The notes beneath the pieces are model-generated. The model saw only the letters and a program-made list of their open reading frames with translations, did not search any database and was not told where the DNA came from. Below, piece by piece: positions 6,642 to 45,084 of a stretch of DNA of 45,453 bases (the stretch's first letter is position 1; each line of letters starts with the position of its first letter). The position numbers and the translations under genes are program-made. Origin of the DNA: an uncultured archaeon (GTDB lineage: Archaea; Aenigmatarchaeota; Aenigmatarchaeia; QMZP01; QMZT01); assembly GCA_965552715.1 (NCBI GenBank), contig CBEVTC010000001.1, positions 1 through 45,453 of the forward strand, in the 5' to 3' direction.

Positions 6642-6869
6642 TTACTGAATCTCCCTGTAAAATGAAACGTCTATCGAAAAGAGCCCGACACCCACGACTA
6701 TCATCAGAACCACTATCAGGACGAGCGTGATGAACGGGTCGAGATTCGCAAAAGAATACGCGATCAGGTAGACGAGGAGGAGGACTGCTATTAAAAAGAC
6801 TATGGAAACTATTATCCTTAACTTCCAAGAGAACTGCTTCACATGAACCTCATCCCTTTTGAATGCCAT
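6642..6869 (-). CDS. Small hypothetical membrane protein (two predicted TM helices)
   Basis: 75-aa ORF, hydrophobic throughout, filling an otherwise unassigned gap. No recognisable family. Confidence 0.35.
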   Translation of the reverse strand: MAFKRDEVHVKQFSWKLRIIVSIVFLIAVLLLVYLIAYSFANLDPFITLVLIVVLMIVVGVGLFSIDVSFYREIQ

Positions 6870-16127: not shown

Positions 16128-18221
16128 GATCACGGTAAAACCACGCTAACTGATAACCTGCTCGCAGGGGCGGGGATGATCTCCGAGGAGCTCGCTGGAA
16201 AGCAGCTCGCGATGGATTTCGTGGAGCAGGAGCAGGAAAGGGGTATAACGATATATTCCGCGAACGTCAGCATGGTTCATGAGTGGGGAGGAAAGGACTA
16301 CCTGATTAATCTCATCGATACGCCCGGACACGTGGATTTCGGCGGGGATGTGACGCGCGCGATGAGAGCGGTGGATGGGGTTCTTGTCCTGATAGATGCA
16401 GTTGAGGCTGTTATGCCGCAGACCGAAACCGTTATCAGGCAAGCCTTGAAGGAAAGGGTAAAGCCGATTCTGTTCATAAACAAGGTTGACCGGTTGATAA
16501 AGGAGCTGAAGCTCACCCCCGAACAGATGCAGGAGAGATTCAAGAAGATTATAACCGAGGTCAACGTGCTCATGCAGAAATACGGGGAGAAGGAACTCGC
16601 TGACAAATGGATGGTTAACGTTAATGACGGGAGCGTTGCGTTCGGGTCTGCTGTGAGGAACTGGGCGATATCCGTTCCGTACATGCAGAAAACAAACATG
16701 ACGTTCAAGGACATAATAGATCTAACGAACAAAGGACCCGAAGGGGAGAAGGAACTCGCTAAGCGTTCGCCTCTCCACATTATAGTTCTGGATATGGTTA
16801 TTAAACATCTCGAAAATCCTTTGGTGGCGCAGAAATACCGTATACAGAAGATATGGCCGGGGGAAAGCGATTCGGAGATTGCGAAGGACATGGTGGATTG
16901 CAATCCCGATGGGAAGCTCGCAGCGATAGTTACGAAACTCTATCCCGATCCACATGCAGGTTACGTCGCGACAGTCCGTATTTTTTCAGGAAAGATGAAA
17001 ACAGGACAGGAAGTCTACCTTGTTAGCATGGACAAAATACAGAAGGTACAGCAGGTTTCCGTGTATAAAGGTCAGCAGAGGATAGGGATGGACGAGGTGG
17101 ATGCAGGGAACATCGTAGGGATTGTCGGTCTCAGGGAATCCTTCTCCGGTGAAACGATCTGTGACCCGGATTACGTAATCCCTGGCTTCGAAGCCATCAC
17201 GCACATATTCGAGCCTGTTGTTGTTAAGGCGATAGAACCAAAGAAACCACAGCAACTTGCGAAACTCATCGAATTCCTGAGAAGAGTCGCCAAAGAGGAT
17301 CCGACCCTCAGGGTTAAGATAAACGAGGAGACAGGAGAGTATCTGGTTTCAGGCCTCGGAGAACTGCACATAGACGCGAAAATAGAGAGGCCTTTGAAGG
17401 ACGAAGGTTTCGATGTGGATGTCTCGCCTCCAATCGTGATTTACAGGGAATCAGTAAGGGGGATCACGCCAGAAGCGATCGAGGGAAAATCCCCGAACAA
17501 GCACAACAGATTCTACGTCATAACCGAACCTCTGGAAGGGAAGGTTCATCGGGCCATGATAAGGGGGGAAGTCCCGTCTAACATAGAAGTCAAGAAAAAG
17601 GACGTTGAGTTGCAGAACAAGCTGGTTGACCTTGGGTTTGACAGGGATGAATCGAAAAAGGTAAAACTCATACACAACCGTAACGTGTTTCTTGACATGA
17701 CAAGGGGTGTCCACGCGATACTCGAGGTTATGGAGATGCTGAAGCAGTCTTTCACGGAAGCGATGGATGAAGGTCCGCTTGCAAGGGAACCCTGCGATGC
17801 GATAAAGGTCAAACTGATTGATGCGAAGCTTCACGAAGACGCGATACACAGGGGTCCTGCCCAGGTAATCCCCGCTGTACGTTCAGCCGTAAGGGATGCG
17901 ATGGTCTCGGGCAAGGCCTACATTCTCGAGCCTAAGCAGATCATAAGGATTGATGTCCCGACAGACAAGCTGAGCGGGGCGATGAAAGAGGTTCAGAACA
18001 GGCGTGGTCAAATCCTGGAAATGGGAGAGGAAAGGGGAACCACGAGTGTCACAGCGAAGCTTCCCGTTGCCGAGATGTTTGGTTTCAACTCGTCCCTGAA
18101 ATCCTCAACCGGGGGTCAGGGCTTCTACTGGCTGATAGACGTGGTTTACGAACCCCTGCCAAGGGATCTCTCACAAAAGGTAATAAGCCAGATAAAACAG
18201 AGAAAGGGAATAACTGAATGA
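16128..18221 (+). CDS. fusA: Elongation factor 2, exon 2 (697 codons)
   Basis: Begins DHGKTTLTDNLLAGAGMISEELAG, then DTPGHVDF and NKVDR, and continues through aEF-2 domains II-V to the stop at 18221. Confidence 0.9.
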   Translation, partial: DHGKTTLTDNLLAGAGMISEELAGKQLAMDFVEQEQERGITIYSANVSMVHEWGGKDYLINLIDTPGHVDFGGDVTRAMRAVDGVLVLIDAVEAVMPQTETVIRQALKERVKPILFINKVDRLIKELKLTPEQMQERFKKIITEVNVLMQKYGEKELADKWMVNVNDGSVAFGSAVRNWAISVPYMQKTNMTFKDIIDLTNKGPEGEKELAKRSPLHIIVLDMVIKHLENPLVAQKYRIQKIWPGESDSEIAKDMVDCNPDGKLAAIVTKLYPDPHAGYVATVRIFSGKMKTGQEVYLVSMDKIQKVQQVSVYKGQQRIGMDEVDAGNIVGIVGLRESFSGETICDPDYVIPGFEAITHIFEPVVVKAIEPKKPQQLAKLIEFLRRVAKEDPTLRVKINEETGEYLVSGLGELHIDAKIERPLKDEGFDVDVSPPIVIYRESVRGITPEAIEGKSPNKHNRFYVITEPLEGKVHRAMIRGEVPSNIEVKKKDVELQNKLVDLGFDRDESKKVKLIHNRNVFLDMTRGVHAILEVMEMLKQSFTEAMDEGPLAREPCDAIKVKLIDAKLHEDAIHRGPAQVIPAVRSAVRDAMVSGKAYILEPKQIIRIDVPTDKLSGAMKEVQNRRGQILEMGEERGTTSVTAKLPVAEMFGFNSSLKSSTGGQGFYWLIDVVYEPLPRDLSQKVISQIKQRKGITE

Positions 18222-18279
18222 ATTCTTTCTAGTTTTAACTTTTTAATATAATCTCCCAAATAAGTTTGTATCAGTATTT

Positions 18280-18299
18280 GACGTTCGCTTTCGAACGTC
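18280..18299 (+). repeat. GACG/CGUC hairpin copy H1 (GACGTTCG-CTTT-CGAACGTC)
   Basis: Perfect 8-bp stem. Including the flanks, 22 of 24 nt are identical to copy H5 inside RNase P RNA. Confidence 0.7.
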
Positions 18300-18316
18300 T
18301 CACGAAACTAGCGATT

Positions 18317-18345
18317 GACGACTTGGATTTAATTATCAAGTCGTC
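18317..18345 (+). repeat. GACG/CGUC hairpin copy H2 (GACGACTTG-11 nt AT-rich loop-CAAGTCGTC), 10 nt upstream of tRNA-Pro
   Basis: Perfect 9-bp inverted repeat. Shares the 11-mer TGACGACTTGG with H3. Confidence 0.7.
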
Positions 18346-18355
18346 GCTCGAAAAT

Positions 18356-18552
18356 GGGGCCGTGGTGTAGCTTGGTTTAGCCTTTCATTTGAAAGAAATG
18401 GTGCCATAAGCATTCATGCTTCGGGCCACTCTTCGTGAACACGAAGCGTGCGAAACGGCATGCGACCTGAGTTCAAATGACCCTTTTACTCAAAAGCGTC
18501 AACGGAAAACCAGCAGCTGACGCTTGCGGTCATGAAACTCTCAGCGGCCCCA
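18356..18552 (+). tRNA. tRNA-Pro(CGG) with three introns: D-arm about 18381-18410, 37/38 at 18426-18456, 59/60 at 18478-18538
   Basis: Acceptor stem GGGGCCG/CGGCCCC. Anticodon stem CATGC/GCATG with loop TTCGGG+G. T stem CTGAG/CTCAG with loop TTCAAAT. The spliced length is 75 nt. No encoded CCA. Confidence 0.85.
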
Positions 18553-30782: not shown

Positions 30783-30803
30783 GACGCACACATTGTATGC
30801 GTC
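30783..30803 (+). repeat. GACG/CGUC hairpin copy H6 (GACGCACAC-ATT-GTATGCGTC) in the pckA 3' region
   Basis: 9-bp stem with one mismatch. Flanks are AT on the 5' side and TATCG on the 3' side, as in H7. Closely resembles H4. Confidence 0.6.
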
Positions 30804-42695: not shown

Positions 42696-42739
42696 AACCC
42701 ATATAAATATAACCACTTATTTATATGTTATTAGCACAT

Positions 42740-42768
42740 GACGACTTGGCTTTATGTTTCAGGTCGTC
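42740..42768 (+). repeat. GACG/CGUC hairpin copy H3 (GACGACTTG-11 nt AT-rich loop-CAGGTCGTC), 11 nt upstream of tRNA-Lys
   Basis: Same 11-mer TGACGACTTGG, loop length and spacing as H2. The single arm difference would be a U-G wobble in RNA. Confidence 0.7.
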
Positions 42769-42779
42769 TCCCTAAATAT

Positions 42780-42990
42780 GGGCCCGTAGCTCAATCGGCA
42801 GAGCACCAGACTCTTAAGAGCGTATGATGCAGGAACTAAAGGATGACGTACACAAAGTGTACGTCGATTGGAACTTCCTGCGTCATTCGAACCTCGGATA
42901 TTATGAAGGTTTCTAGAACCTTGTGATTGAGGGATATCTGGGGGTTGCGGGTTCGATACGTAGCTTTACGTGAAAATCCCGTCGGGCCCA
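42780..42990 (+). tRNA. tRNA-Lys(CUU) with two introns: 37/38 at 42817-42935 (119 nt) and 59/60 at 42958-42976 (19 nt)
   Basis: Acceptor stem GGGCCCG/CGGGCCC. D arm GCTC-AATCGGCA-GAGC. Anticodon stem CCAGA/TCTGG with loop CTCTTAA. T stem GCGGG/CCCGT with loop TTCGATT. The spliced length is 73 nt. Confidence 0.85.
42845..42865 (+). repeat. GACG/CGUC hairpin copy H4 (GACGTACAC-AAA-GTGTACGTC) inside the tRNA-Lys 119-nt intron
   Basis: Perfect 9-bp stem preceded by AT. The left arm differs from that of H6 at one position. Confidence 0.65.
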
Positions 42991-43018: not shown

Positions 43019-43039
43019 GACGCAGGTCCCACCTGCGTC
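43019..43039 (+). repeat. GACG/CGUC hairpin copy H7 (GACGCAGGT-CCC-ACCTGCGTC), 29 nt downstream of tRNA-Lys
   Basis: Perfect 9-bp stem. Flanks are AT on the 5' side and TATCG on the 3' side; the 3' flank matches H6. Confidence 0.65.
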
Positions 43040-43976: not shown

Positions 43977-44042
43977 GCTATCAATAAAGAATTAATAATC
44001 TTTCATTTATAAGCTTTTGACCCATTTGAGAAAATAAATGTT

Positions 44043-44368
44043 GTGCTGGGCATAGCCCATTTTCTGTCATCTCGCAGGCTTTGACGCCTGAACGAGGCGA
44101 TAGCATTTTTCTAACTCGTCCCTTTATTTTTCGGGACTTTCACCCGCACGACCCGAACTCTTTCACCCTCCTGCTTCTTCGATGCTTTCCCTTTCGGGAT
44201 CATCGCTCCAAAGCGAAGGTTTATTTCTGCGTCCGGACAGGTCCTCTCGGACCCTGCCTTGCGACAGCGTACCTTTCGAAAGACGTTCGCAAGCGAACGT
44301 CAATCTATCGGGTGCCTGGAACTTACCTCCCCGAGTCGCCTCAGGGCAAGCTATCTGCCCAGCTCAAC
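44043..44368 (-). ncRNA. rnpB: RNase P RNA (compact archaeal type, about 325 nt)
   Basis: On the minus strand: P1 is GCUGGGCA(5')/UGCCCAGC(3'); the P3 hairpin is CCCUGAG-GCGA-CUCGGGG; the CR-I-like element is GGAGGUAAGUUCC; the CR-II-like element is AGGGUGAAAG; the CR-IV/V-like element is GAGAUGACAGAAAAUGGGCUAU. A TATA-like TTTTTAAA lies at 44398-44391. Confidence 0.8.
44282..44301 (-). repeat. GACG/CGUC hairpin copy H5 (GACGUUCGC-UU-GCGAACGUC) forming a helix of RNase P RNA
   Basis: Read on the minus (sense) strand it is UUGACGUUCGCUUGCGAACGUCUU, near-identical to H1. Confidence 0.65.
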
Positions 44369-44439
44369 AAGATTTTTTAGGTTTTGGGGGTTTAAAAAGG
44401 TTATTTCGAGAGAATTCCGGCTAAACCGTTAAAAAATAA

Positions 44440-44548
44440 GAAACGAGCACCAAGACCTTTTGACCAGGACTGAATAAAGATTTACTGTCCTGACTCTTGG
44501 GGCTTAACAGCCTTACCTTTCGGCCAGACCTTGGAACCCTCAATTAAG
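44440..44548 (-). ncRNA. Candidate small structured RNA (about 95-110 nt, three-way junction; possibly a divergent 5S-like RNA)
   Basis: On the minus strand: a closing helix CCAAGGUC/GGUCUUGG; an arm containing CCGAAAGGUAAGGCUGUUAAGCCCC; and an 8-bp arm GUCAGGAC/GUCCUGGU. A TATA-like CTTAAAAAG lies upstream and an oligo-U run (UUUCUUAUUUUUU) downstream. No ORF. Confidence 0.3.
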
Positions 44549-44672
44549 AGTTGAAAATAGGCTTTTTAAGCATTTCCGTGGGGGAAAATAGATTTTGGGG
44601 AATATATATGTCAAAAAATTTTTCTCCAAGCCCTCATATAAATACGTCCTTACCCAATTTAAAGTAAGGGGG

Positions 44673-44945
44673 ATGCGAACAATCAAATTCAATAAAAAGG
44701 GCAGTATCGCCAAATCAAAAGAAGGTGACCTTCTTCTCGTAAATGAGGACAAAAAGGCGTACAAGGTTGACGAGGTCGTGATCCTTATATGGACCATGTG
44801 CGACGGGAAACACGACAACAAGGAGATAGTAGAGGAGTTCTGTTCAAAACTCGGCAAGAATGTCCCGAAAGAAGAGATCGAGAAAGCAGTCTCAGACATA
44901 ACCCAGAAGTTGGAAAAATTCGGTCTTCTTGAGAAGTGCAAGTGA
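44673..44945 (+). CDS. PqqD-family protein (RiPP-recognition-element-like)
   Basis: KVDEVVILIWTMCDGKHDNKEIVEEFCSKLGKNVPKEEIEKAVSDITQKLEKFGLLE. The ATG at 44673 follows an AAGGGGG Shine-Dalgarno sequence. Confidence 0.6.
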   Translation: MRTIKFNKKGSIAKSKEGDLLLVNEDKKAYKVDEVVILIWTMCDGKHDNKEIVEEFCSKLGKNVPKEEIEKAVSDITQKLEKFGLLEKCK

Positions 44946-45084
44946 GATCGGAAATGTATTCTGATTAATGATCTGTTTATAGCTTGGACTAATACTTTTT
45001 CTTTGGTCAACCGATTTCTTGAATAAGCGGAAGCTATCGTAAAGAAAGTGGTTGGCGAGTTGTCCTTTTAACTAGGATCTGTCA

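Follow-up and report, generated by a model that had tools for sequence, protein, structure and literature searches.

A sense-oriented family of probable hairpin insertion modules, kin to archaeal mini-introns, among the stable-RNA genes of an Aenigmatarchaeota clade

The window analysed here, a 45,453-nt stretch of DNA from an uncultured archaeon of the Aenigmatarchaeota (DPANN archaea; GenBank assembly GCA_965552715.1, contig CBEVTC010000001.1), contains a set of small hairpins (H1–H7) whose stems open with GACG and close with CGTC, two of them in tandem ahead of a tRNA-Pro gene. They lie in and beside tRNA genes, inside RNase P RNA and between two convergent protein genes, and the question raised by this locus is what kind of element they represent. 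A first-pass annotation of the same DNA considered them an RNA-level processing, stability or protein-binding hairpin, or else a small mobile palindrome whose presence inside stable RNAs is tolerated, and did not recognise a described motif. Comparison with related loci (given here as L-numbers) makes it likely, in our judgement, that the hairpins are the cores of a lineage-specific, sense-oriented family of insertion modules that has spread among stable-RNA genes and the non-coding bases near them, and that forms mini-introns where its flanks pair. The modules are apparently mobile, and the family is kin to the hairpin mini-introns of archaea.

All seven hairpins are present in the window, each with T before it and T or G after it, and H1 with its flanks agrees with H5 at 22 of 24 positions, as the first-pass annotation had reported. 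Its inventory was incomplete, with two more copies (H8 and H9) missed, and its description of the flanks stopped short of a longer conserved motif set out below. The gene context it had assigned is borne out: RNase P RNA is found with Rfam, the tRNA-Pro and tRNA-Lys genes with ARAGORN after removal of introns, and the pckA and EF-2 genes with Pfam, which also identifies the eIF-6 gene. H2 ends 10 nt ahead of the tRNA-Pro +1 and H3 ends 11 nt ahead of the tRNA-Lys +1; the segment with H1 and H2 folds as two hairpins (z = -3.87). H7 is flanked by the 3′ end of tRNA-Lys on one side and, on the other, by the stop codon of a convergent gene for a hydrolase of the metallo-beta-lactamase (MBL) fold. 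H8 is a module inserted at the 5′ end of the tRNA-Lys 37/38 intron, with H4 within its loop, and H9 is the 5′ part of the tRNA-Pro T-loop intron.

The hairpins are in excess of chance. The window contains eight perfect hairpins with a stem of at least 8 bp and a loop of 3–12 nt, and five of the eight are closed by GACG..CGTC with the stem stopping exactly at the box. Shuffled controls (500, dinucleotide-preserving) have a mean of 0.10 such hairpins and a maximum of one, and any other 4-mer box reaches at most three hairpins in this comparison. GA-closed hairpins are likewise enriched across 649 kb of DNA from 56 related loci, where GA opens 32 of the 152 perfect hairpins and GACG opens 14; variant closures among the relatives include GAAG..CTTC, GATG..CATC and GAAT..ATTC. 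The loci compared include 10 around the MBL-hydrolase gene, all of which have family hairpins, and 45 fetched around the EF-2 gene, at least six of which do.

The module has the consensus (R)CG-WWU-[GA..stem 8–10 bp, loop 3–11..UC]-NWU-CGAAA-C and is ~35–47 nt long. Among 41 aligned copies the upstream flank has C at position -5 in 25, G at -4 in 29 and U at -1 in 32, and the downstream flank has U at +3 in 32, C at +4 in 37, G at +5 in 35 and A at +6, +7 and +8 in 31, 31 and 36. The TCGAAA hexamer is itself enriched throughout the window on both strands (104 occurrences, where 65 ± 8 would be expected), often as the palindrome TTTCGAAA in coding sequence, so that the hexamer alone is weak evidence of a copy. 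The string CGTCNNTCGAAA was tried as a stand-alone motif and set aside; it has four exact matches, one of which (at 6668) has no hairpin.

Of 49 copies, 43 have the flank motif on the sense strand of the RNA gene that hosts or adjoins them, with three ties and three antisense calls; in the stems, sense-strand G.U pairs number 16, as against 6 A.C mismatches that would read as G.U on the opposite strand. The lists behind both figures were curated partly on pairing and flank motif, so that the 43/49 and 16:6 ratios are indicative and not exact. This agrees with the strand-oriented family in transcribed non-coding sequence that the first-pass annotation had proposed, and its assignment of a strand is ambiguous for H6, with flanks in the pckA sense and a G.U pair in the eIF-6 sense. 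Copies lie within stable-RNA genes or in their leaders and trailers, in the rRNA spacer and in tiny gaps between genes; the exceptions are three hairpins in protein-coding sequence, judged to be chance matches. Two of the three antisense calls are orthologues of one intron in the D-loop of the spacer tRNA-Ala (L001:477–497, L080:1353–1373, L007:3087–3107). Its hairpin flanks fit the antisense strand better in L001 (9 versus 6) and in L080 and tie in L007, while a bulge-helix-bulge (BHB) is still formed on the sense strand (GCGG/UCGC). This copy is a possible inverted insertion and bears on whether mobility is at the DNA or the RNA level.

In alignments with close relatives, the orthologous site of each of the seven hairpins is empty in at least one of them. 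Among these relatives are one with an EF-2 93% identical to that of the window (L029) and one with an MBL hydrolase 95% identical (L001). At the tRNA-Pro leader, L029, L032 and L036 read ..TATCAA-N followed directly by GGGGCCG with nothing between, where the window and L031 have two modules (~80 nt) and L033 has one; the hairpins of L033, L038 and L039 are different ones with the same NNUCGAAAC tail. The tRNA-Lys leader is without a hairpin in L003 and L007, has a different stem in L002 and L079, and has two hairpins each in L005 and L008. The H7 site is empty in L001 and has another stem in L002. H4 is missing in L001, where there is a plain 21-nt hairpin with a loop of just TTC, and at the H8/H4 site L007, L008 and L009 carry a 37-nt core intron only. 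At the H5 site in RNase P RNA, alignment places only a native hairpin of 3–5 bp in L002, L003, L005 and L007 and other GACG hairpins in L001 and L004, and the RNase P RNAs of L005 and L080 have family members at two other positions of the molecule. Between the convergent stop codons of eIF-6 and pckA there are 2 nt in L075 and 8 nt in L078; in L076 and L077 the gap measures 37 nt and has a GATGCGTA-type hairpin, and in the window it measures 40 nt and is essentially the H6 module.

The same units are found at unrelated sites and in different genomes, which argues for copying between sites and not for independent origin. The H7 stem GACGCAGGT..ACCTGCGTC is in the tRNA-Lys trailer of the window; L001 has it in a 23S rRNA intron and L003 in the T-loop intron of its tRNA-Lys. 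The H1 stem GACGTTCG..CGAACGTC is shared by the tRNA-Pro leader (window and L031), the tRNA-Lys 37/38 intron (L003 and L004) and RNase P RNA, as H5 in the window and at another site in L080. H3 has the same stem type as H2, and so do hairpins of the tRNA-Lys leader in L001, L004 and L009, of RNase P RNA in L005 and of a 23S intron in L080. A longer unit, TAACTGACGATT followed by the stem GACGACTTG..CAGGTCGTC and NGTCGAA, is common to a 90-nt L080 23S intron and L005 RNase P RNA. Copies may also be nested, as are H4 in H8 and L005:3411 within a T-loop intron. The differing stem interiors, which had been read as covariation around a fixed closing box, come mostly from a few stem sub-types (CAGGT, TTCG, ACTTG, CATAC) among paralogous copies. 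These sub-types recur at unrelated sites, and the differences do not represent compensatory change at a conserved site. The alternative of a palindromic mobile repeat tolerated in stable RNAs comes close to this picture of filled and empty sites and recurring units.

The link to introns comes from the 23S rRNA genes of two relatives. A BHB consists of a 4-bp central helix with two 3-nt bulges on opposite strands at the splice sites (PMC4090602). The L001 23S gene has five exact insertions (38, 38, 38, 35 and 38 nt) that are absent from L007, L008 and L009, and for four of the five a perfect 4-bp BHB forms when the insertion is placed in the register that leaves the 23S rRNA colinear. The L080 gene (L080:1896–6136; European Nucleotide Archive ERZ27256783, k141_2264904) is 4241 nt long against ~3100 nt in relatives, with 12 insertions relative to L007–L009, 11 of 35–90 nt and one of 670 nt. 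Nine of the 12 have a perfect BHB; one of the nine is the 670-nt intron with its gene for a LAGLIDADG protein, our positive control. We estimate the chance of a 4-bp match, with G.U counted, at ~0.02 per register. The predicted spliced 23S rRNAs are identical to or colinear with the intron-less 23S of L007. L001 and L080 have one insertion site in common, with differing hairpins; the helix between exon and intron there is CUCU/AGAG in L001 and CUUU/GAAG in L080, a compensatory change. This geometry suggests that the 23S insertions are spliceable mini-introns.

The tRNA genes of the window have the same architecture. All five of their introns form a canonical BHB, four with a tRNA stem as the 5-bp outer helix, and H4, H8 and H9 fall within them; BHB geometry is also seen in a T-loop intron of L003 and a D-loop intron of L007. 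ARAGORN finds no tRNA in the raw window, and Rfam at a permissive E-value threshold also misses both tRNA genes, because tRNA-Pro and tRNA-Lys are interrupted by three and two introns (D-arm, 37/38 and T-loop). A 37-nt core of the tRNA-Lys intron (GAUAUUAUGAAGG..CCUUGUGAUUGAGGGAUA; window 42886–42935) is common to all ten genomes, and its UGA-rich boxes are reminiscent of a putative box C/D guide RNA. In the 37/38 intron of the window tRNA-Pro, UUCG of the anticodon loop pairs with CGAA, which is followed by AC and the 3′ splice site; in T-loop introns, UUCG or UUCA pairs with CGAA or UGAA. UUCG occurs in the T-loop UUCGAAU and in the tRNA-Pro(CGG) anticodon loop. The CGAA-AC tail is thus what an intron in a UUCG loop requires, and the family would most likely descend from an intron of a UUCG-containing tRNA loop.

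Table 1. Positions of the hairpins and associated features in the window.
Feature	Position	Strand	Description
H1 hairpin	18280–18299	+	8 bp, loop 4; GACGTTCG-CTTT-CGAACGTC, then TCA-CGAAAC
H2 hairpin	18317–18345	+	9–10 bp; GACGACTTGG..CAAGTCGTC; flanks CGATT and GCTCGAAAA
H3 hairpin, tRNA-Lys 5′ leader	42740–42768	+	10 pairs including one G.U
H4 hairpin	42845–42865	+	9 bp, loop 3; GACGTACAC-AAA-GTGTACGTC; nested in H8 loop
H5 hairpin in RNase P RNA	44282–44301	-	8 bp, loop 4; extends small peripheral hairpin
H6 hairpin	30783–30803	ambiguous	8 of 9 pairs; C.A mismatch on + is G.U on -
H7 hairpin	43019–43039	+	9 bp, loop 3; GACGCAGGT-CCC-ACCTGCGTC, then TATCGAAAA
H8, extra copy	42826–42884	+	GAUG..CGUC; GATGCAGGAA..TTCCTGCGTC (also given as GAUGCAGGAA..UUCCUGCGUC); flanks CGTAT and ATTCGAAC
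H9, extra copy	18479–18500	+	GACC..CGUC; GACCCTTTT-ACTC-AAAAGCGTC, then AACGGAAAAC
Double-module insertion with H1 and H2, tRNA-Pro 5′ leader	18275–18354	+	~80 nt; from alignment with relatives
pckA/eIF-6 spacer between convergent stop codons	30771–30810		40 nt, essentially the H6 module
tRNA-Pro(CGG) gene	18356–18552	+	three BHB introns, 18379–18408, 18426–18456 and 18478–18538; ARAGORN on hand-spliced sequence
tRNA-Lys(CTT) gene	42780–42990	+	two BHB introns; ARAGORN on hand-spliced sequence
tRNA-Lys introns	42817–42935 and 42958–42976	+	119 nt (37/38) and 19 nt (T-loop); BHB geometry
RNase P RNA gene	44041–44367	-	Rfam RF00373, E = 1.4e-19, 73 bits against a gathering score of 84

The other six hairpins of the window (H1, H2, H3, H5, H6 and H7) are free-standing. 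A scan of both BHB arrangements within 22 nt on either side of them gives none with supporting inner or outer helices, and yields weak or AU-rich chance matches only, such as AUUU/AAAU with its exon side in the TATA box. A match at three of four positions at H1 (GUAU/AAAC; CUAU/AAAG in L031) was not accepted. These copies are therefore kin of the intron family and not introns. Since no BHB can be drawn for H5, it is probably retained as an extension of a peripheral helix, and the H5 stretch aligns as an insert relative to the RF00373 model. In intron-less relatives the TATA box is ~23 nt from the tRNA +1, which places the insertions of H1/H2 and of H3 just after the predicted transcription start, to be transcribed as a structured leader. 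Upstream of tRNA-Lys there is also a 28-nt perfect palindrome, CATATAAATATAACCACTTATTTATATG (42700–42727), made of two inverted TATA-like boxes; it is kept in L001 and L002 and has a diverged but recognisable counterpart in L007 and L009, and, in relatives without a leader insertion, the spacing to the tRNA is plausible for the distal box only.

The fate of a module would be set by where it lands. Inside an essential RNA such as 23S rRNA or a tRNA body, the survivors would be copies whose flanks pair with the upstream exon as a BHB, in which four exon bases pair with the four module bases just 3′ of the hairpin, one 3-nt bulge lies on each strand and the hairpin itself provides the inner helix. 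Such copies, by analogy with known BHB introns, would be cut by the archaeal splicing endonuclease and their exons rejoined by RtcB, and H4, H8 and H9 would be excised together with their host tRNA introns by the same enzymes. In the rRNA copies the four tail bases appear to have been replaced by the complement of the module's own exon, and the free-standing copies appear to have kept CGAAAC with the pairing partner absent. H1, H2 and H3, between the predicted transcription start and the tRNA +1, would be lost when RNase P takes off the leader, and H6 and H7, in 3′ spacers, would be kept in the transcript tail.

A more specific proposal, which we regard as possible and advance tentatively, is that the module is an undescribed archaeal mobile element, a non-coding hairpin of ~37–47 nt whose transposition is specific to the transcription strand, either by way of an RNA intermediate or into single-stranded non-template DNA. 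Any position in a highly expressed RNA gene could receive it, and it would turn into a BHB intron only if its tail can pair with the exon. If this is true, the same mobile hairpin is both a repeat resembling the repetitive extragenic palindromes (REPs) and the seed of new archaeal introns, and intron birth has been caught in the act.

Several points weigh against the insertion-module reading. The leading loose end is that the leader hairpins end 10–13 nt from the tRNA +1 in 12 of 13 tRNA leaders, with differing stems; survivorship alone fails to explain this constant spacing, which could reflect either a function or an insertion-site preference. No target-site duplication is seen at the pairs of filled and empty sites, and some of the empty sites could represent loss and not gain. 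The intron label fits the relatives of the six free-standing copies and not the processing of those copies themselves, and both the splicing of the 23S insertions and the retention of H5 are read from sequence geometry. The sampled loci were picked beside RNA genes (the MBL/rRNA locus and the EF-2/tRNA-Pro locus), so that the association with stable RNAs is in part an effect of ascertainment, to which the curation of the copy list mentioned above is added.

The strongest competing explanation, which we consider improbable, is a DNA-level REP-like repeat, a single-strand DNA hairpin moved by a tyrosine HUH transposase (of the REP-associated tyrosine transposase, RAYT, or IS200/IS605 TnpA type) with a preference for the exposed non-template strand of very highly transcribed genes, the BHB copies being the survivors in essential RNAs. 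REPs and the bacterial interspersed mosaic elements (BIMEs) built around them are imperfect palindromes of ~35 nt with a short conserved box at the stem foot, extragenic and often at gene 3′ ends, polymorphic between strains and transcribed as RNA hairpins. The modules resemble them as short, dispersed and polymorphic palindromes with a conserved foot box; their size (~35–45 nt), short conserved flanks and extragenic or stable-RNA sites fit, as does presence/absence polymorphism without target duplication, and the better antisense fit of the tRNA-Ala D-loop copy in two of three orthologues (L001 and L080, with L007 tied) would be easier to obtain by insertion at the DNA level. However, REPs carry a GTAG box and are tied to a RAYT gene, whereas the modules have a GA..TC foot with CG at -5/-4, U at -1 and CGAAA downstream, and the GT(A/G)G tetranucleotide 5′ of the palindrome is not found. 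No transposase gene was seen in the ~700 kb of scattered loci, in which none was sought. The orientation of the modules, unlike that of REPs, follows transcription, and the sense bias is strong in leaders and spacers too; the excess of sense-strand G.U pairs and the complementarity of the rRNA-copy tails to the host exon also speak against a DNA-level repeat. To our knowledge, REPs have not been found in rRNA or tRNA genes as spliceable inserts.

Slightly less credible still is that the hairpin serves as a functional signal in the RNA, with recognition by a protein or nuclease, to guide 5′/3′ end processing or shield stable-RNA precursors and mRNA tails from exonucleases. Sense-strand orientation, sense-strand G.U pairs in the stems, the conserved G-C and A-U closing pairs with the CGAAA tail, and the 10–13 nt spacing from the tRNA +1 despite differing stems would all suit such a signal. 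Yet orthologous sites are empty in close relatives with the same tRNA, RNase P RNA or gene pair, so that no copy can be essential, and like hairpins are found inside introns, where they are to be discarded, and as excisable inserts within 23S rRNA. The processing, stability or protein-binding hairpin of the first-pass annotation is not supported as a conserved signal: for each of the seven, one close relative or more lacks it at the orthologous site. Generic stable hairpins without a common origin, whether terminators or chance palindromes, in which GACG is shared by coincidence, deserve almost no credence: H6 and H7 do lie at gene 3′ ends and the opposite strand of H7 has a T-run 13 nt downstream, but the shuffled controls, the enrichment of GA-closed hairpins in related DNA, the common flank consensus (5 nt upstream and 9 nt downstream), the copies in leaders, introns, RNase P RNA and 23S rRNA, and stems without a directly following U-tract already contradict them.

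A number of known element types were also considered and rejected. Intrinsic terminators do not match stems that are followed by NWU-CGAAA with no U-run, many of them upstream of or inside RNA genes. Miniature inverted-repeat transposable elements do not match a single 20–29 nt hairpin with asymmetric flanks and no target duplication at filled and empty pairs. The UGA..stem..GAAAC appearance recalls a hammerhead ribozyme, the core positions of which are not present, with six extra bases between the stem and GAAA. A K-turn or box C/D motif, in which tandem sheared G.A pairs adjoin a 3-nt bulge, was set aside by inspection, as the foot GA pairs with UC in Watson-Crick fashion in all 37 tabulated copies, which were collected with GA..TC closure as a criterion. 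The hairpin as a transcription start with a T/G initiator fails, as H2, H4, H5 and the 23S copies cannot be starts and the TATA box of intron-less relatives is ~23 nt from +1. Pairing of the H1 stem of the leader with the identical H5 stem of RNase P RNA for substrate recognition is rejected, as the sub-types of RNase P and leader hairpins differ in L001, L004 and L080. A search of IMG/VR with two stem patterns for viral carriage returned one unrelated terminator-like match only.

Elsewhere in the window, the EF-2 open reading frame (ORF; 16176–18221) begins at position 39 of 188 of the Pfam GTP_EFTU profile, and the true N-terminus is therefore probably upstream of the first ATG of the ORF. 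The 3′ end of the 23S rRNA is also present, and the closest homologues of the window's proteins carry the name Candidatus Aenigmatarchaeota; an exact-sequence look-up of its eIF-6 matched no record. The spacer between this 23S 3′ end and the RNase P RNA (window 44368–45070) is ~1.2 kb longer in L001 (L001:4183–6060), with neighbouring genes 95% identical, and in the window it has a 156-aa ORF (44540–45010, minus strand) without a Pfam match.

The modules have consequences for annotation, since they hide tRNA genes, lower RNase P RNA below the Rfam gathering score and add up to 12 insertions to a 23S gene. Standard tools will badly underestimate the tRNA inventories of this clade, and annotation, completeness estimates and rRNA-based phylogeny of DPANN genomes are affected. 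A similar situation is described for rRNA insertions in the Candidate Phyla Radiation (PMC11270868), also in small-genome episymbionts with insertion-rich rRNA that confounds standard detection of RNA genes. Those insertions are for the most part longer, in many cases code for homing endonucleases, and are bacterial and non-BHB, whereas those described here are mostly hairpins of 35–47 nt with archaeal BHB junctions.

The first-pass annotation recognised no described motif, but the family is not unprecedented: like hairpins form the inner helix of BHB mini-introns in the 23S rRNA and tRNAs of relatives, and short (<50 nt) hairpin BHB introns of this kind are known from Thermoproteales 16S rRNA (Jay & Inskeep 2015, PMC4496867). 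The two are alike in being single-hairpin, non-coding rRNA inserts of tens of nucleotides with a BHB at the junction, variably present or absent and sometimes located beside LAGLIDADG introns, as in L080 (PMC4496867). They differ in host, here DPANN, and in that the copies characterised here are in 23S rRNA. Thermoproteales introns at different 16S loci are too dissimilar for mutual comparison (PMC4496867), whereas the Aenigmatarchaeota copies share a sequence family with a GA/UC-closed stem, CG flanks and a CGAAAC tail, and this family is found also at sites without a BHB, namely tRNA leaders and trailers, RNase P RNA and gaps between genes.

Thermoproteales tRNA introns are a second close parallel. 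Gain by transposition has been proposed for them with the mechanism still unknown (Fujishima et al. 2010, as related in PMC4090602), and, to the extent of that secondary account, they are like the present family in that one tRNA may have several introns and the BHB is the sole structural requirement. Measured against the same account, the present copies differ in extending beyond tRNA bodies and spliceable positions, to 23S rRNA, RNase P RNA, leaders, trailers and an mRNA spacer, and in that they may nest (H4 in H8; L005:3411). A full-text literature search gave no paper on the GACG hairpin family or on BHB mini-introns in Aenigmatarchaeota rRNA. What is new relative to these systems is the host lineage, the density of up to 12 insertions per 23S gene, the recognisable common sequence and the presence of the unit at non-spliceable sites. 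On the gain and spread of BHB introns, this clade supplies pairs of filled and empty sites, nested copies, and both spliceable and non-spliceable locations; with many such pairs and nested copies at hand, the order of events, insertion followed by selection for a BHB or the reverse, becomes testable.

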